64,000 bases of DNA from Solirubrobacterales bacterium (GTDB lineage Bacteria > Actinomycetota > Thermoleophilia > Solirubrobacterales > 70-9). Below the pieces are notes generated by a model. That model did not search any database. It was not told where the DNA came from and was given only the letters and a program-made list of their open reading frames with translations. The position numbers and the translations under genes were made by a program. Below, piece by piece: positions 2,057 to 63,947 of the stretch (positions are counted from its first letter, which is position 1; each line of letters opens with the position of its first letter). Location: the NCBI GenBank assembly GCA_035472395.1, contig DATIPC010000098.1, forward strand, positions 11,631 to 75,630, read 5' to 3'.

Positions 2057-5417
<3,361 letters not shown>

Positions 5418-18316: not shown

Positions 18317-18374
18317 CTCCGGTGCGCCTTATGTATCCAGTGGGTGCAAAAGGCGCACCGGAACCGACTGCCCA

Positions 18375-30001: not shown

Positions 30002-30957
30002 TCTCCGCAGGTGTCCGGCGACTCGCCGCCGGCCGCTTCGCGCGCTTCGTCGTAGCGGGCGACGTCGGCTTCGAACTGCGCTTCGCTCGCGGAGAAGGAG
30101 TGTTCGCCGCAGGCCCCGGGCTTGACCACGTAGAAGAGGTAGTCGACCTTGGCCGGGTGCGCCGCCGCTTCGATCGAGGCCAGGCCGGGGCTGCCGATCG
30201 GGCCCGGCGGCAGGCCGGCATTGAGCCGGGTGTTGTAAGGGGAGTCCACGGCCAGCTCGGATTCGGTCAGCGGCCGGTCGTAGTTGCCGGTCGCGAAGCG
30301 GATCGTCGCGTCGATCCCCAGCGGCATCCCGTCGTGCAGGCGGTTGTAGATCACCGCGGCGATCAGCGGCCGCTCCTTCTCGAGCTGCGCCTCGCGCTCG
30401 ATCATCGAGGCGATCGTCACCACGTCGCGGGTAGTGAGGTTCTTGGAGCGCGCATAGCGCATATCGACCCCCGCGACGCGGCGCTTGAAATCCTGCAGCT
30501 GCAGTTCGACCAGATCAGAGGCGGGCGCGCCTTTTTCCAGTTCGAAGGTGTCGGGAAAGAGGAACCCCTCATGACCCTTGCTGGCCTTCATGTAGCTGCC
30601 GGTCAGGCCGGCTTCCTTGGCGATCTGCGCGGTCTGCTCACGGCTGTAGCCCTCGGGGATCGTCACCGTGACCGTCTTCAGCACGACCGGTGGCGGCGCG
30701 TCGCTCCGCCGGGAGTGGCGGTAGACAGCCGCAGCGGCGAGCGCGGCGAGCAGGAGAACCACGACCGCCACTCCGGCGAGCGCGATGCGACGGCGGCTGC
30801 GGCGGGGCTTTGACGGCGGGCCGCCAGAAGGCTCTGGGGGGGGCTCGGCGGGAGGTGGAGCGGTCGGCGCTGCACTGTGGCGCCGCTCCTCCCGTTCCCT
30901 CCACCTCCGCTCCCTCTCGGTGGCGTCAGGGTCGTCGCCGAACCAGTCCTCACTCAT
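29998..30957 (-). CDS. mltG: endolytic transglycosylase MltG (YceG-like)
   Basis: Disordered N-terminus plus a TM helix, then the YceG domain (ASMIEREA, YNTRLNAGLPPGPIGSPG). Confidence 0.85.
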   Translation of the reverse strand: MSEDWFGDDPDATERERRWREREERRHSAAPTAPPPAEPPPEPSGGPPSKPRRSRRRIALAGVAVVVLLLAALAAAAVYRHSRRSDAPPPVVLKTVTVTIPEGYSREQTAQIAKEAGLTGSYMKASKGHEGFLFPDTFELEKGAPASDLVELQLQDFKRRVAGVDMRYARSKNLTTRDVVTIASMIEREAQLEKERPLIAAVIYNRLHDGMPLGIDATIRFATGNYDRPLTESELAVDSPYNTRLNAGLPPGPIGSPGLASIEAAAHPAKVDYLFYVVKPGACGEHSFSASEAQFEADVARYDEAREAAGGESPDTCGE

Positions 30958-58633: not shown

Positions 58634-59314
58634 TCAGCCCGTCCCGTTACCGCCGGCAGCCGGCCCGAACAGCTCCTTGAGGTCGTCCTCGCGGCCCGGG
58701 TCGAGCACGGCGAGCACCTCGTCGCCGGCCTCGAGCACAGTGTCGGCGTTGGGCACGAAGCCCTTGCCTTCGCGCAGCACCGAGATCAGCAGGCTGCCTT
58801 CGGGCATCGAGAGGTCGCCGACGCGGCGCCCGGTGACGCTCGAGTCCTTGCCGAGCAGCATCTCGATGATCTCCAGCTGCTCCTCCTGCAGGTCGAGCAG
58901 GTGGACGAGGCCATACTCGGGAACCTCGTGCTCGAGCAGGCGCAGGATCAGATCGGTGGCGGAGACCGACGGCTTCACCCCGAGCAGGTCGAAGTGCGGC
59001 CGGTTGCGCGGGTTGTTGACCCGGGCGATGATCCGTTCGACCTCGTACTTCTCGCGGGCGACCTGGCAGATCAGCATGTTGTCCTCGTCGTCGCCGGTCA
59101 CGGCGATCACCATGTCGGCCCGCTGGATCCCGGCCCGCTCCAGCACCCAGAGCTCTGAGGCGTCGCCGTAGGTGACGTTGTGCTCGAGCTCTTGCTCAAC
59201 GGTCAGGTAGCGGCGCCTGTTGCTCTCGATCACCGTCACCTCGTGGTTCTTTTCGAGCAGCTCGCGGGCCAGGTTCCAGCCGACCTTCCCCGCCCCGACC
59301 ACGATGATGTACAT
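58634..59314 (-). CDS. TrkA-type K+ transport regulatory protein (RCK N + C domains)
   Basis: MYIIVVGAGKVGWNLARELL. Start trimmed to ATG 59314, just after the upstream stop. Confidence 0.85.
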   Translation of the reverse strand: MYIIVVGAGKVGWNLARELLEKNHEVTVIESNRRRYLTVEQELEHNVTYGDASELWVLERAGIQRADMVIAVTGDDEDNMLICQVAREKYEVERIIARVNNPRNRPHFDLLGVKPSVSATDLILRLLEHEVPEYGLVHLLDLQEEQLEIIEMLLGKDSSVTGRRVGDLSMPEGSLLISVLREGKGFVPNADTVLEAGDEVLAVLDPGREDDLKELFGPAAGGNGTG

Positions 59315-59316
59315 GC

Positions 59317-59757
59317 TCACGCCACCTCGCGCTGGGCGCCCTCGCGGACGGCGCTCTCGAGCATGTCGATCGCGACCCTGGTCGGGCAGATCGTGTGCAT
59401 GCCCTGCTGCCGGTACCACTCGGCCCGGAGCGGGTCGAGGATCCGCGCGATCACCGTCGGCACCTCATAGCGGCGCTGGGCGATCTGGGCGATCACGATG
59501 TTCGTGTTGTCGCCGTTGGTGGCGGCGATGAAGGCGTCGGCTTTCTCGATCCCAGCGGCAAGCAGGGCGTCGGTCTCGAGGCCGGTGCCGACCGTGAAGC
59601 GGCCGCCGAGGTCCTCCCAACCCTTGTCGAGACCGACCTCGAGGCGGGTGTGGGCCTCGGGGTCCTCGTCGAGGCAGGAGACCTCGTGGCCCTCGCTCAG
59701 CATCGAACGGGCTACGGACGAGCCGACCCGCCCGCAACCAACGATCAGAATGAACAC
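59317..59757 (-). CDS. TrkA-N (RCK N-terminal) domain protein
   Basis: MFILIVGCGRVGSSVARSML. Confidence 0.85.
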   Translation of the reverse strand: MFILIVGCGRVGSSVARSMLSEGHEVSCLDEDPEAHTRLEVGLDKGWEDLGGRFTVGTGLETDALLAAGIEKADAFIAATNGDNTNIVIAQIAQRRYEVPTVIARILDPLRAEWYRQQGMHTICPTRVAIDMLESAVREGAQREVA

Positions 59758-59777
59758 GTCTTCACCACGGGTGGAGT

Positions 59778-61820
59778 CTAGTCAGCGGCGGCCGGCACGG
59801 GCTCCGGCTCAGCGGGGGTCTCTGGGGGCGCCGTGAGCAGGACCTGGCAAGGCGCTTTCTTGAGCACGTACTCGGTCGCAGCGCCGATCTCGGCCGGTTT
59901 GGCTGCGCCGATCCCGCCGAGCTTCGCACCGCCGCGGATCTTGCTCGGCGGCTCGGCCCCGACCACGATCGCTTCGACGCCGCCGCGCCGGGCTGCCTCG
60001 ACTATTCCAGCGCCTACCTTGCGCGCCCTCGTCACCGACGCGGTCACTTTGACGTCCTCGTACTCTTCGCCGACTTCGCGGGCGCGCTCGATCGCGTGCA
60101 GCGCCTCCTGCTCCCGCTCCGGCGGCAGCTCGGCGTCGAGCGGCAGGGTCAACGGCACCTCGAGCACGTAGACGATGGCGAGGTGGGTCTCGTCGACCTC
60201 CCCGCCTCCCTCCTGCTCAGCAGCAGCCAGCCGCCCCGCGGTGGCGACGATGTCGTCGTCGAGCTCGGTCCCGAACACCGGCACGAGGATGTTGCCGTAT
60301 TCGACGTTGGGCGCCCGCTTGGTCAAAGCCCTCTCGGTGACCTGGACGCGCCGGGTGAGCGTCGTCCCCTCGAAGACCTTGCGGTAGACGACGTAGAAGA
60401 TCAGGCCAAACAGCATCCAACCGCCGCCGACCCAGCGCGCCCGGTCGTGGAAGGCGAGGACGCTGAGGAAGGCGAGGACGCTGAGCAGGGCGGCGAAGAG
60501 CGTCGGCAGGGGAAGCTGCGCCCCGCGCCAGGAGACGCTCCAGGGAACTCGGAAGGGGCGGGTCCGGTCGGGTTCGGTGACGCGCAGCCGCAGGATCGAG
60601 AGGTGGGCGATCGTGATCGCCAACATCGCCCCGAACGCGTAGAGCCCGGCCAGCAGCTTGACGTCGGTCGGTGCGACAAGGCCGATCGCGATCAGTCCGG
60701 AGAGCCCGATCGCCACGTGCGGGGTCGCGTAGCGACTGTTGAGCTTGCCCAGCCAACTGGGGATCTGGCGGTTGATCGCCAGCGTGTAGATATGGCGGGA
60801 GACGCCGAGCATCGCGGTCGTCGCCGCCCAGAACAGGACCGGGGCCGCAACCAGGGCCACGACCCAGCGCATCGTGTCCGCCACCCAGGCCGGGTGGTAG
60901 GCGGAGACCACCCCCAGCACCGGCGCCTCGACGAATTCGCCGCCCAGCGCGGTTTCCGGCCCCTGCGGACCGGCGACGACCGGCACCGCCATCAGCGCGA
61001 TCGCAGCCATCCCGGCGTAGACGAGCGGCACCGCGACGGCGCCAACGGAGACGATCCGCTTCAGGTCGCGCGGTTTGACGTCGATGTCGGGCGCCAGGTC
61101 GGAGGCGGCCTCGATTCCGGCGTAGGCCAGCATCGCGATCACCGAGGCGTAGACGATGTCCTTGATGCTGGGATTGGTGAAGAGGTCGATCTGGTCGGTG
61201 AGGCGATCGGGGTGAAGGACGGCGAGCGCACCGACCCCGATCACAGCGAGCTGGAGGGCGATGTCGGCGAGGGCCAGCACGCTGAGCGTGCGCGCCCGCC
61301 CGCGGCCGGTGACGTTGAGGATGTTGAGCGCGCAGGCGGCGACGATCACCAACCCGGCGACACCGATCTCCCAGCCCGGCTCGGAGAGGTCGTGTGAGAT
61401 CGGCTCGAGGTAATGCGGGACCGAGATCGCCGCCAGCGCAGCGACGATCAGGTAGTCGATCAGGATCGCCCAGCCGGCGATGAAGGCGATCAGCTCGTTG
61501 AAGGCGTGGCGGGCGAAGCTCGACGAGCCGCCCCGCTCGCGGATCATCGCGCCGCCCTCGACGTAGCTGAGCGTGGTCAGCACGAAGAGCAGCCCCGCGG
61601 CAAGGAAGATCAGCGGGGTCAGGCCGAGGCCGCGGTCGGCGACGACGCCGAGCGAGAAGTAGATCGAGAAGCCGACCGCGGAATAGACGGCGACGAAGAG
61701 GCCGGGGACGCCTAGGCCGCGGTTCAGCAGGGGTTCTATGCGGGGACGTTGCTCGGGCTGCTCATTGGGGGCGTCGGCCGCGGGTCCTGGCGCGGGGGGA
61801 GGGGGGGTTAGCGGACTCAC
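59778..61820 (-). CDS. APC-superfamily permease fused to a C-terminal universal stress protein (USP) domain
   Basis: About 12 TM helices (GGSSSFARHAFNE), then a USP-like tail (NILVPVFGTELDD...KAPCQVLL). Start is GTG 61820 (GTGA overlap) or GTG 61850. Confidence 0.85.
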   Translation of the reverse strand: MSPLTPPPPAPGPAADAPNEQPEQRPRIEPLLNRGLGVPGLFVAVYSAVGFSIYFSLGVVADRGLGLTPLIFLAAGLLFVLTTLSYVEGGAMIRERGGSSSFARHAFNELIAFIAGWAILIDYLIVAALAAISVPHYLEPISHDLSEPGWEIGVAGLVIVAACALNILNVTGRGRARTLSVLALADIALQLAVIGVGALAVLHPDRLTDQIDLFTNPSIKDIVYASVIAMLAYAGIEAASDLAPDIDVKPRDLKRIVSVGAVAVPLVYAGMAAIALMAVPVVAGPQGPETALGGEFVEAPVLGVVSAYHPAWVADTMRWVVALVAAPVLFWAATTAMLGVSRHIYTLAINRQIPSWLGKLNSRYATPHVAIGLSGLIAIGLVAPTDVKLLAGLYAFGAMLAITIAHLSILRLRVTEPDRTRPFRVPWSVSWRGAQLPLPTLFAALLSVLAFLSVLAFHDRARWVGGGWMLFGLIFYVVYRKVFEGTTLTRRVQVTERALTKRAPNVEYGNILVPVFGTELDDDIVATAGRLAAAEQEGGGEVDETHLAIVYVLEVPLTLPLDAELPPEREQEALHAIERAREVGEEYEDVKVTASVTRARKVGAGIVEAARRGGVEAIVVGAEPPSKIRGGAKLGGIGAAKPAEIGAATEYVLKKAPCQVLLTAPPETPAEPEPVPAAAD

Positions 61821-61849
61821 CCGTCCGAACCCCCCCTCCCCCCGCGCCA
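61788..61849 (-). promoter_or_regulatory. 22-bp perfect inverted repeat (+5 bp inner helix) made of G6/G7 and C7/C6 runs; loop carries GTGA
   Basis: Read directly: 61788-61809 is the exact reverse complement of 61828-61849. Inner CGGAC/GTCCG. Loop at 61817-61822. Confidence 0.75.
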
Positions 61850-62041
61850 CCCGCGGAAGGTGCCACTGAGCCAGAGACGCGCTACGCCTACGGTCAGAAA
61901 CGCGACCCCGAGAAGGGTTCCCAGCGAGATCGGGCCGCCGCCGTGGGCGAAGGTGCTGATGAGGATCAGCAGGCCCAAGCCGATGAAGGCAAGAGACAGG
62001 GCGCGGATCGAGCCGCGGTAGATCCGCTCGGGCGAGGACAT
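61817..62041 (-). CDS. 74-aa two-TM membrane protein
   Basis: ATG 10 nt after the stop of the upstream permease. Two hydrophobic helices. Gly/Arg tail encoded by the G-run arm. Confidence 0.5.
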   Translation of the reverse strand: MSSPERIYRGSIRALSLAFIGLGLLILISTFAHGGGPISLGTLLGVAFLTVGVARLWLSGTFRGWRGGRGGSDG

Positions 62042-62051
62042 CGCGGCGATT

Positions 62052-63947
62052 CTAGGCCAGGACAGGCGGGGTCTCGGAAGCCTGTCCGCTCCTGTCGGAA
62101 ACGACGATGACGCGACAGGGTCGCTCGCTCAGAACCGTCTGCAGGGTCTTGTCGTAGAGCGGCGCGCCGTTGCGGTAGCGCAGGCCGACGACCATCGCGG
62201 CGGCATTGATCAGCTTCGCCTCGTCGGAGATCGAGTAGCCGGCCTGCGCCGGCCGCACCCTCTCGACGTGACCGGTGACCCGCTGCCCGCCGATCAGCTT
62301 CGCCTGCTCCACCTTGCTCTGCGCCTCGGCTTCCTGGTCGCGCAGCTCGGCGTCGAGCGGCAGGTCGGTCGGCACGATCAGCATCGAGTGGATGTGAACG
62401 CCGCGACGGCGCTTGGAGGCGAGCTTGACCGCGGTCGCGACCATCTCCTCGGAAAACGGCTCCCCGTCCTCGAAGGCGACGAGGATGCTGCGGTACTCGA
62501 TCTCCTCCACCCCGAGTGGCTCCGGCGTGACGACTTTGACCGTCTCGGTAAGCGGCAGTTTCTGATTGCGGCGGTAGAGGACGTAGACGACGATCCCGAA
62601 CGCCATCCAGCCGGCTCCGACGGCGAGCGTACGCGGGTTGAGCGCCATCACAACGACCCAGGCGGCGAAGGTGCCGAGACCGCCGAGCACCGCGGTCAGC
62701 GGCACCTCGAAGCCGAAAGCGTGGAAGTTGAGTGGCGGCTTCCAGGGCCGCTCCTCCTCCGATTTTCGCCGCCGCAGCTGGATCACCGAGACGTGCGCGA
62801 TCGTGAAGGAGAGCATCGCGCCGAACGAGTACAGCGTCGCCAGGAATTCGGCCTGGCCCGGAATCAGGGTGATCATCGCCAGGCCGGCGAAGACCATGAT
62901 CGCGATATAGGGGGTGCGGTAGCGGGGGTGGACCTGGCGCAGCCCCTCGGGCAACTGGCGGTGCTGTCCCATCGAGTAGGTGAGCCGGGAGACGCCGATC
63001 AGGCCGGCATTGGTGGCGATCAGGAGGATCACCGCGGCGAGGATGCCGACGTAGAAGCGCAGCGCTTCGGTCAGGCCGCTGCCAAGGCCGAGGTTCTCGA
63101 CGATGCCGAGGATCGGGTCGTTGGCGAACTCGGAGCCAAGCGCGGTCGTGTAGTGGCCGGCTGCGTCTTGGACGACCGGCATCGCCGACAGCGCCACGAT
63201 TGGAATCAGCAGGTAGAGGCCGAGCACGGCAGCGACCGTGAGGCCGACGCTGCGCGGGATCGTCCGCGCCGCGTCCTTGGCCTCCTCGGCCATGTTGGAG
63301 ATCGTCTCGATCCCGGTGTAGGCGATCATCGCGACCGCGACCCCCAGCGCAAAGTCCGACCAGGTCGGAGCTACGCCGAGGTGGATGTTGTCGATCAGCA
63401 CCTGCGGGCTGAGCACCAGCACGACGCCGATCCCGACCAGCACGACCTGGGTGCCCAGATCGGCGACGGCGAGGATCAGGTTCAGTTTGGCCGACTCCTG
63501 CGAGCCACGGATGTTGAGCAGGGCCAGAGCCCCGATCAGGACAGCACCGCCGATGATGTCGCCTGGAGCGTGACCGAGCGGCTCCCAGAAGACGGCCAGG
63601 TAGTGGGGCACGAAGTAGGCCGAGATCGCGACCGTGATCGTGTAGTTGAGCATCTGCCCCCAGGCGGCAACGAAGCTGACCAGCTCGTTGAAGGCGTGGC
63701 GGGCGAAGCTCGACGACCCCCCCGCCTCTGGGTACATCACGGTCGCCTCGGCGTAGGTCGCAGCGGTCGCGGCGAAGATCAGGCCGGAGATGACGAAGGC
63801 GACCGGGGTGAGGCCGAGGGCGAAGGCCGCGGTGACGCCGAGGGCGTAGTAGATCGAGGAGCCGACGTTGCCGTAGGCGGCCGAGAACAGGGCGCCGACG
63901 CCGTGAACGCGGCTCAGCGATTCGTCTCTGGGTATGCGCTGGGCCAT
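62052..63947 (-). CDS. APC-superfamily permease fused to a C-terminal USP domain (paralogue)
   Basis: 631 aa with the same architecture as 59778..61820 (GGSSSFARHAFNE..., SILVAFEDGEPFS...ERPCRVIVV). Confidence 0.85.
   Translation of the reverse strand: MAQRIPRDESLSRVHGVGALFSAAYGNVGSSIYYALGVTAAFALGLTPVAFVISGLIFAATAATYAEATVMYPEAGGSSSFARHAFNELVSFVAAWGQMLNYTITVAISAYFVPHYLAVFWEPLGHAPGDIIGGAVLIGALALLNIRGSQESAKLNLILAVADLGTQVVLVGIGVVLVLSPQVLIDNIHLGVAPTWSDFALGVAVAMIAYTGIETISNMAEEAKDAARTIPRSVGLTVAAVLGLYLLIPIVALSAMPVVQDAAGHYTTALGSEFANDPILGIVENLGLGSGLTEALRFYVGILAAVILLIATNAGLIGVSRLTYSMGQHRQLPEGLRQVHPRYRTPYIAIMVFAGLAMITLIPGQAEFLATLYSFGAMLSFTIAHVSVIQLRRRKSEEERPWKPPLNFHAFGFEVPLTAVLGGLGTFAAWVVVMALNPRTLAVGAGWMAFGIVVYVLYRRNQKLPLTETVKVVTPEPLGVEEIEYRSILVAFEDGEPFSEEMVATAVKLASKRRRGVHIHSMLIVPTDLPLDAELRDQEAEAQSKVEQAKLIGGQRVTGHVERVRPAQAGYSISDEAKLINAAAMVVGLRYRNGAPLYDKTLQTVLSERPCRVIVVSDRSGQASETPPVLA

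Follow-up and report, generated by a model that had tools for sequence, protein, structure and literature searches.

The window, a 64,000-nucleotide stretch of contig DATIPC010000098.1 from a Solirubrobacterales bacterium (assembly GCA_035472395.1, positions 11,631 to 75,630 of the forward strand), contains an operon on its minus strand (58634-63947) that encodes a permease with APC and Usp domains, a protein of 74 amino acids (61-74 across the genomes with this gene order) with two transmembrane (TM) segments, a second APC and Usp permease, and two TrkA-type genes. A long hairpin spans the junction between the open reading frame (ORF) of the small protein and the gene for the second permease. 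The best explanation as a whole, which we hold with good confidence, is that this hairpin belongs to a palindromic repeat family, G+C-rich and dispersed in Solirubrobacterales, of which it is a single copy. The genes and the parts of the hairpin are as follows.

62052..63947, minus strand: APC and Usp permease 1, upstream paralogue in the same operon (Pfam)
61817..62041, minus strand: small ORF of 74 amino acids with two TM segments, a conserved gene whose residues 64-74 (GWRGGRGGSDG) and stop codon come from the element
59778..61820, minus strand: APC (AA_permease_2) and Usp permease 2 (Pfam), drawn from the GTG in the hairpin loop, with an alternative GTG at 61850
61849..61856, minus strand: 5' strand of the outer helix, CCGCGGGU, containing the GTG at 61850-61848 (folding)
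61828..61849, minus strand: 5' arm of the main helix (RNA sense), encoding small-ORF residues WRGGRGG
61812..61827, minus strand: apical module, with inner stem 61823-61827/61812-61816 and hexaloop GGGUGA at 61822-61817
61788..61809, minus strand: 3' arm of the main helix, encoding permease residues TPPPPAP if the loop GTG is the start
61778..61785, minus strand: 3' strand of the outer helix, ACCCGCGG (folding and covariation)
61775..61859, minus strand: covariance-model match, 85 positions and 32 pairs, the single copy in the window

The core of the hairpin is a perfect inverted repeat with 22-nt arms (61788-61809 and 61828-61849, 100% complementary) and an 18-nt spacer, within which cggac pairs with gtccg to leave a 2-nt bulge (61810-61811) and a 6-nt loop (61817-61822; tcaccc, or GGGTGA on the minus strand). 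On the minus strand the loop contains the TGA that closes the 74-aa ORF (61819-61817) and, overlapping it, a GTG in the frame of the permease (61820-61818). The initial annotation had described the exact repeat, the inner 5-bp stem, the 6-nt loop and the overlap of stop and start in these terms, and the sequence confirms each of them. The stability that had been expected of the helix is borne out by an RNA minimum free energy of -73.9 kcal/mol for a 78-nt region (z = -8.8; 0 of 200 shuffled sequences equal it). With an additional 8-bp outer helix, in which 61849-61856 pairs with 61778-61785, the structure becomes an 85-nt unit on the minus strand (61775-61859) of -79.8 kcal/mol (z = -8.5), and in the minimum-free-energy fold T61849 finds its partner in this outer helix rather than in A61788. 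The alternative GTG (61850-61848), which had been placed directly against the main helix, does occupy that position but lies within the outer helix. The complementary strand and the DNA forms of the hairpin fold equally well. The hairpin is the sole perfect long inverted repeat of the window, and its G6AG7 motif occurs only once there. As had been pointed out, the structure is not a canonical terminator: no T-run follows the stem on either strand, the terminator scan makes no call at the hairpin, and the combined promoter and terminator scan found nothing there. Among Rfam models the hairpin matches microRNA precursors only (22-31 bits against thresholds of 60-105), which is the generic noise of long hairpins, and a run over the whole window at gathering thresholds returned two tRNAs and nothing else. 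Two other, imperfect inverted repeats occur in the window, one at 18318-18362 (22-nt arms, 86% complementary, 1 nt apart, with a relatively low G+C content of 0.60) and one at 30694-30792 (29-nt arms, 76% complementary, 41 nt apart).

The small ORF has 185 homologues of 61-97 amino acids, for which two membrane helices are predicted and in which a GGGP motif is invariant. Scanning species-representative genomes for this ORF gave 80 loci (L001-L080), every one from Solirubrobacterales or from unclassified actinobacterial metagenome-assembled genomes, and the order permease 1, small ORF, permease 2, trkA is the same in almost all of these ~80 genomes. Because of this conserved order and the overlap of stop and start, the small protein may be a stoichiometric partner of the transporter. 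The proposal that orthologous loci might keep both a small upstream ORF and an inverted repeat holds for the ORF at ~80 loci, but the inverted repeat is found at only 12 of the 80 genome loci; a further ten copies at this junction come from metagenome contigs. Only some small-ORF homologues have the C-terminal tail FRGWRGGRGGSDG, all of them in loci that carry the element, while the remaining homologues end in ...RLWIASRT or ...LSGxFR. In element-free loci, the small-ORF stop overlaps the start of permease 2 as GTGA or ATGA.

Alignment of 21 orthologous copies shows that 98.9% of pair cells are standard pairs and that nine pairs, in 34 cells, have changed on both sides. Covariation of this extent is reached by none of 500 shuffles, and pairing falls to 47-57% when the partner is slid by 1-3 columns. 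The tail of the small protein varies along with the stem (WRGGRGGSDG, WRRGRGGSDG, WRDGGRGSDG, WRRGAGGSGG) while pairing stays, so that nucleic-acid pairing and not the peptide is what is constrained. The suggestion that the homopolymeric arms might undergo slipped-strand variation finds no echo in these copies, whose G and C runs stay complementary and whose small ORF always stops at the loop TGA. Of the 12 loci to which the protein had led, a route with no bias towards this core, 10 have identical apical 21 nt, and the stem differs at nine pairs. Two types of locus can be told apart by how permease 2 starts. In 14 loci including the window (type A), the loop GTG is in the permease frame, no in-frame ATG is present, and the sole in-frame ATG, GTG or TTG codons before the conserved RPR(I/L)EPLL sequence are the loop GTG and the GTG 30 nt upstream. 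In eight loci (type B: L002, L003, L004, L005, L024, L098, L131 and L150), the loop GTG is out of the permease frame, and an in-frame ATG is retained 56 nt downstream; the frame opened by the loop GTG is a 19-codon ORF with a TGA that overlaps this permease ATG as ATGA. Among more diverged copies at the same junction, the small ORF of L066 and L062 reads through the element and stops on the ATG, and that of L040 ends before the element.

The origin of the hairpin at this junction was examined by aligning filled sites (the window, L001, L010 and L002) with the empty sites of close relatives (L035, L067 and L069), which places the following features.

61766..61853, minus strand: insertion block of 88 nt (filled versus empty comparison), with a 3-nt CCG slide that would place it at 61769-61856
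61763..61765, minus strand: relic of the ancestral permease ATG (ATGAGC-AG), out of frame through a 1-nt deletion and followed by a stop nine codons on

The empty sites read ...GGCGTCTTCCG/ATGAGCGAGCCCGAGCAG, where the slash marks the point of insertion, and their small ORF, with the end ...FR, has a TGA stop overlapping the ATG of the permease; the filled sites read ...GGCACCTTCCG/88-89 nt/ATGAGC.... On this alignment the element is a clean insertion exactly at the ancestral ATGA overlap between the small-ORF stop and the permease 2 start. On the 3' side the insert includes the 12 nt that lie past the outer helix (CCGACGCCCCCA). The left flank is C, T and C/T at 47, 36 and 50 of 53 sites of the family, respectively, and a CTT is already present in the empty sites, which suggests that this flank is a preferred target and not part of the element. 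The small ORF now extends 11 codons into the element and ends at the loop TGA. Since 88 equals 3 x 29 + 1, the ancestral TGA closes the frame of the loop GTG, which would explain the 19-codon ORF of type B as a relic. Type A loci have two 1-nt differences (CCCCA versus CCCCAC before the ATG, and ATGAG-CAG versus ATGAGCCAG) that put the old ATG out of frame and the loop GTG in frame. Permease 2 in the window lineage probably depends now on a start codon supplied by the element; drawn from the loop GTG, its first 18 codons derive from the element. Deletion of a palindrome that was once present was considered for L067 and L069 and rejected, because the alignment places them with L035 as free of the insert (never filled, or precisely excised).

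Beyond this operon, the element belongs to a family. A metagenome scan with the 21-nt apical core TCGGACGGGTGAGTCCGCTAA as its pattern found 103 copies of the core on 95 stretches of soil metagenome contigs, several of which hold two or three copies. Together with the window, these 104 copies form 53 clusters by their flanks, one of which is the permease junction with 11 copies (the window and ten from metagenomes). RNAalifold recovers the same 32-pair structure from 101 copies, with compensatory changes at 18 of the 32 pairs, and across the family the outer helix shows covariation in its three outermost pairs (CG 62 / GC 32; CG 80 / GC 17). A covariance model built from 50 copies finds a single copy in the window, at 99.5 bits (E = 3.5e-21) on the minus strand versus 42.3 bits on the plus strand, with the next best match at 18 bits; it finds no copies elsewhere in the 614 kb around the operon in the 80 genomes. 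The model also adds eight metagenome variants. One keeps the GGGTGA loop with a compensated inner stem, and the remainder are a 55-nt short form and long forms of ~146 nt that have the base alone in common (CTC-NNN-CGGGTGGCG ... CGACAGGACCCG-N'N'N'). Variants of ~146, 55 and 93 nt are located at L135:2266-2411, L144:5623-5766, L151:2294-2443, L106:2678-2825, L138:2097-2151 and L040:4208-4300; these long, short and 93-nt variants share the conserved base alone, their upper stem and apex differ yet are fully paired, and the long forms share a GGCG(T)CCTCTTTTTCGCC...GGCGAAAAACCCAGC module.

The typical element is ~88 nt long with a G+C content of 75-80%. Its base is conserved and asymmetric (CTC/CTT, then NNN-CGGGTGGCG ... 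CGACAGGACCCG-N'N'N' - GCCGARGSC), its upper stem is long and variable in sequence with pairing kept, and its apical hairpin (UUCGGAC-GGGUGA-GUCCGCUAA) is strongly conserved. Of its six reading frames, four are open; the sense frame that is closed contains the loop TGA and, nine bases on, a TAA. On the GGGTGA strand there are 44 G.U pairs versus 8 A.C pairs (24 versus 8 without one hot position). Mean identity outside the core is 86% between orthologous copies, 80% between copies at different sites of the same contig, and 75% between other pairs; the copies are old and vertically inherited. The 21-nt core is absent from viral contigs, and the 116-nt region has no match in the plasmid collection. 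A protein search with a 114-aa concatenate of the four open frames gave one match at E <= 0.1 among 661 word candidates, a result that is uninformative with regard to in-frame copies because 30-aa matches cannot reach significance against 5.8 billion sequences. A literature search on palindromic repeats or MITEs (miniature transposable elements with inverted repeats) in Solirubrobacter or Thermoleophilia, and on the core sequence, found nothing relevant.

The positions of the copies were assessed relative to flanking reading frames called by G+C content at third codon positions. At least 41 of the 104 copies lie 5-47 nt past the stop codon of a confidently called gene. Among post-stop copies, 19 follow a gene on the strand of the element and 30 follow a gene on the opposite strand, and eight are between convergent genes. 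Copies are also found inside operons, and long ORFs run through at least nine. Neighbouring genes are of the housekeeping kind, such as ask/asd, pdxS/pdxT, glnA and a Na+/H+ antiporter, and no transposase was seen among them. At many unrelated sites an upstream stop codon lies 10-13 nt from the foot of the hairpin, with the flank consensus TAGGCGCYYCTC; examples of this fixed distance are L096, L117, L125, L132, L135, L169 and L175, and next to opposite-strand genes the mirror image (CTA/TCA) appears ~11 nt out on the other side. At four further sites (L099, L132, L153/L160 and L156), a mini-ORF from the loop GTG overlaps a downstream start, and relics of ancestral overlaps explain these as well as designed coupling does.

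In-frame copies occur in unrelated genes. Two PMT_2 glycosyltransferase paralogues that are 38% identical carry copies at the same homologous position in opposite orientations (L082:4026-4110, minus; L082:5869-5953, plus), which suggests either target specificity or flipping of the palindrome. A DnaE-type DNA polymerase III alpha subunit has an in-frame copy within its PHP domain on two contigs, and a UvrD-like helicase has one between its two domains; these copies are located as follows.

L143:9521-9605, L097:3749-3833, L149:469-553: in-frame copies in the PHP domain and in the UvrD-like helicase

An 812-codon ORF for a multi-pass membrane protein, which has no Pfam match, contains three in-frame copies (L106:2678-2825, which is a 148-nt long form, 3305-3389 and 4020-4104), and its orthologue in L121 contains two copies back to back (2117-2201 and 2211-2295).

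If the element supplies the start of permease 2, translation of this gene should be tied to that of the small ORF. By elimination, the start is probably one of the two GTG codons of the element, at 61820 or 61850; the loop GTG, put forward from the outset as the best candidate, retains that standing, because the two GTG codons are the only in-frame starts upstream of RPR(I/L)EPLL and because of the split of 14 loci versus eight. Both candidates, and the G-rich tract that resembles a Shine-Dalgarno sequence, would be locked in a helix of -80 kcal/mol, so that free 30S subunits should rarely initiate there. A ribosome that finishes the small ORF would melt the 5' arm and terminate in the loop, one base from the GUG, and permease 2 would be translated mainly by such ribosomes restarting at the overlapping GUGA. 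Burial of the candidate starts thus implies dependence of the permease on ribosomes from the small ORF, which is a reasonable and sound inference from the predicted fold. The -4 geometry of stop and start is the most efficient for coupling, but structure just downstream of a stop can reduce coupling (review PMC12548453), so that the effect of the element on permease 2 may be to lower its expression and not simply to preserve it. As other repeats suggest by analogy, the helix may, between one half of the operon and the other, be a barrier to 3'-5' decay or a substrate of RNase III, and a role in RNA processing or attenuation resembling those of the REP, enterobacterial repetitive intergenic consensus (ERIC) and Correia elements is possible.

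How the family would have reached its sites is suggested by its structure. It would spread, or once have spread, as a non-autonomous element whose folded single strand is recognised, much as in REPINs or in IS200/IS605-type transposition, and would insert behind a CTY motif with no clear duplication of the target. A foot that is conserved along with an asymmetric internal loop, a stem that varies yet stays paired, the CTY flank and the excess of G.U pairs all fit a single folded strand being recognised. Since genes are followed by copies in either orientation, the GGGTGA strand is not consistently transcribed, which favours a single-stranded DNA stage over a function in mRNA. Several points weigh against reading the hairpin as a copy of a mobile family. 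A phmmer search with E. coli RayT against 9350 six-frame ORFs from the window and the loci gave no match at E <= 10, which is a weak negative since it covers ~1.3 Mb of flanking sequence with one distant query. Invariance of the apical 21 nt across metagenome copies is partly built in, because this 21-mer was the search pattern. Copies on the same contig are never identical, with a maximum of 92%, which does not speak for current mobility. No clear target-site duplication was seen: the one comparison of filled and empty sites gives only the CCG ambiguity of 3 nt, which some filled loci have and others lack, and the flanks of the family (CTC ... GCC) are not direct repeats. Each of the two N-terminal forms of the small ORF (74 aa, MSSPERIY...; 68 aa, VYARSVQ...) has alleles with and without the element, and L039 and L018, with a permease 1 that is 94-96% identical to that of the window, lack the element and have a very different 3' half of the small ORF; because filled and empty alleles cut across the N-terminal types, the history points to recombination or repeated gain and loss. 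The permease start and the coupling, finally, are argued from elimination and from thermodynamics.

Among the alternatives, it is possible, as a tentative proposal that is compatible with a dispersed repeat, that the family is an RNA element useful to the host, such as a terminator without a tail, a stabiliser of 3' ends or an RNase III site, which in the window would set the ratio of permease 1 and the small ORF to permease 2 and trkA. Clustering of copies 5-47 nt after stops and between convergent genes, a structure kept in every copy, the excess of G.U over A.C that points to one folded strand, and the precedents of ERIC, Correia and REP elements (PMC10969869; PMC3184786) would all be accommodated, but the U-tract is absent on either side, the in-frame copies in essential genes cannot be terminators, and with 19 sense versus 30 antisense copies many transcripts carry the complement of the strand that seems to be selected. 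A second possibility, to which we also give tentative credence, is that pairing is kept by a DNA mechanism such as intrastrand template switching or repair of extruded hairpins, in which case the copy in the window would be tolerated junk with accidental effects on coding. Compensation is nearly complete despite little divergence of the flanks, many pairs have been swapped by transversion (GC to CG, UA to GC) without a wobble intermediate, and both strands fold equally well as RNA and as DNA, as such a mechanism would predict; strand-symmetric copying would not be expected to produce 44 G.U versus 8 A.C pairs, and neither the 2-nt bulge nor the asymmetric internal loop of the base has been corrected to a perfect palindrome, since both are conserved.

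It is doubtful that the element is a mobile coupling cassette, which would settle on operon junctions without polar effects. Such a cassette would target overlaps of stop and start or the ends of genes and bring its own stops (one frame with TGA and TAA and, on the other strand, one with TAG); the GUG of its apical loop, overlapping a stop, would through its open frame pass ribosomes to the downstream start or could become the start of the downstream gene, as in the window, and its invariant apical hairpin would be the recognition site of a putative single-stranded DNA transposase or of an RNA-binding protein. That the element is bound at the DNA level, as a site or a cruciform, by a protein of the nucleoid or of DNA topology, in the way that bacterial interspersed mosaic elements are bound by IHF and gyrase, is unlikely: the palindrome with a conserved asymmetric base and the largely extragenic distribution would suit it, but sites of dimeric proteins conserve the sequence of the half-site, whereas here sequence varies and pairing is kept, and copies lie in frame within genes.

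The initial annotation had proposed coupling or attenuation between the paralogous permeases, and that the hairpin and its GTGA loop evolved locally as a regulatory device for this is a view to which the stop and start overlapping within the loop, the very stable helix and its retention with compensatory changes at the orthologous locus lend some appeal. It is now very improbable, because the same sequence and loop recur at unrelated sites, 53 or more in number, some of them within ORFs and in either orientation, because the 88-nt element is a clean insertion relative to empty sites that already hold the ATGA overlap, so that a local origin is already contradicted, and because the permease starts at a downstream ATG in eight orthologous loci, while others read through the element or stop earlier. 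That the G-runs switch between the hairpin and an RNA G-quadruplex, or the C-runs an i-motif, can be dismissed as next to impossible in spite of several tracts of three or more G in the 5' arm, because G-tracts are interrupted in other copies (GGTGGGGGTGGG, GGCATGGGGG) with the C arm always compensating, a covariation pattern that conserves pairing and not G-tracts.

The preferred reading, a dispersed repeat that was inserted into the operon, invites comparison with known families. Classical REP sequences have a GTAG tetranucleotide at the 5' foot of the palindrome; the element has no GTAG head, and its foot is CTC/CTT followed by NNN-CGGGTGGCG. The element also differs from REP sequences and REPINs in that no RAYT was found among the ~1.3 Mb of flanks searched, in that many copies are in frame inside genes, and in that its host is an actinobacterial order and not Proteobacteria. 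Like them, it is a dispersed hairpin of ~100 nt with many copies at gene ends and with clustered copies, is inherited vertically and persists at orthologous sites, and has a conserved foot, a variable paired stem and a strand asymmetry that fit recognition as single-stranded DNA (PMC3116915, PMC3337134). Rickettsia palindromic elements (RPEs), of ~100-150 nt, are found in frame in unrelated and even essential genes (Ogata et al. 2000, reviewed in PMC10969869), and the element likewise inserts in frame in unrelated protein genes, adding a peptide segment; unlike RPEs, it has an unrelated host and the opposite base composition, and about half of its copies are extragenic after stops. Given the host phylum and the G+C content of 75-80%, homology with RPEs in sequence is implausible.

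The mycobacterial interspersed repetitive unit (MIRU) is an actinobacterial intercistronic repeat located at the start codon (Supply et al. 1997; PMC12548453, PMC3184786), in which the ends of an internal ORF overlap the adjoining stop and start (-4) and hand on ribosomes (PMC12548453, PMC3184786). The eight type B loci, with a loop GTG, 19 codons and a TGA overlapping an ATG, resemble this arrangement, but the window itself is type A with its frame fused to the permease, and MIRUs, from Mycobacterium, consist of directly and often tandemly repeated units of 46-101 bp, whereas the element is a single palindromic unit. The -4 overlap in type B is most simply read from the sequence as a relic of the ancestral stop of the small ORF. 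Correia elements (also called NEMIS) and ERIC sequences are co-transcribed MITEs that serve as substrates of RNase III or RNase E or as barriers for stability, altering expression of flanking genes (PMC10969869). The element is similarly an inverted repeat inside a transcription unit that is predicted to fold in mRNA, but no parent insertion sequence, clear target duplication (TA for Correia) or A+T-rich promoter or IHF site such as theirs was seen here. As in MITEs generally, the whole unit of 85-88 nt is an inverted repeat, within the size range of 50-500 bp. The window shares with classical translational coupling (PMC12548453) a -4 GUGA overlap and a start and Shine-Dalgarno-like tract held in a structure that would be opened only by the upstream ribosome, but the structure, the stop and the start are supplied by a repeat instead of having evolved in place. 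With Rho-independent terminators it shares the stem and not the T-run, which the flanks of the family also lack. Integron attC sites were rejected by inspection, because the ends of the element are CGGGTGGCG ... CGACAGGACCCG, there are no R''/R' boxes (RYYYAAC ... GTTRRRY), and copies are scattered in both orientations and not arrayed as tandem cassettes beside intI.

The family is apparently undescribed, of the REPIN, MITE or RPE kind, and exapted at the permease junction; its interest lies in this apparent novelty, in its precise landing on an overlap of stop and start, and in the GTG that appears to have been captured as the start of a permease. On this reading, the C-terminal tail of the small protein, the proline-rich N-terminus of the permease and the hairpin itself would be by-products of the insertion of a repeat, and annotation ought not to present them as evolved protein or regulatory features. 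The element would also be a well-defined hairpin of RNA or single-stranded DNA, with a conserved apex, for work on binding partners. One orthologous junction offers a natural series of responses of an operon to insertion, with the solutions of a loop stop and the old ATG, a loop stop and a captured start, read-through, an upstream stop, and an empty site. For the biology of uncultured soil Solirubrobacterales, the family resembles a high-G+C, free-living counterpart of RPEs and REPINs.

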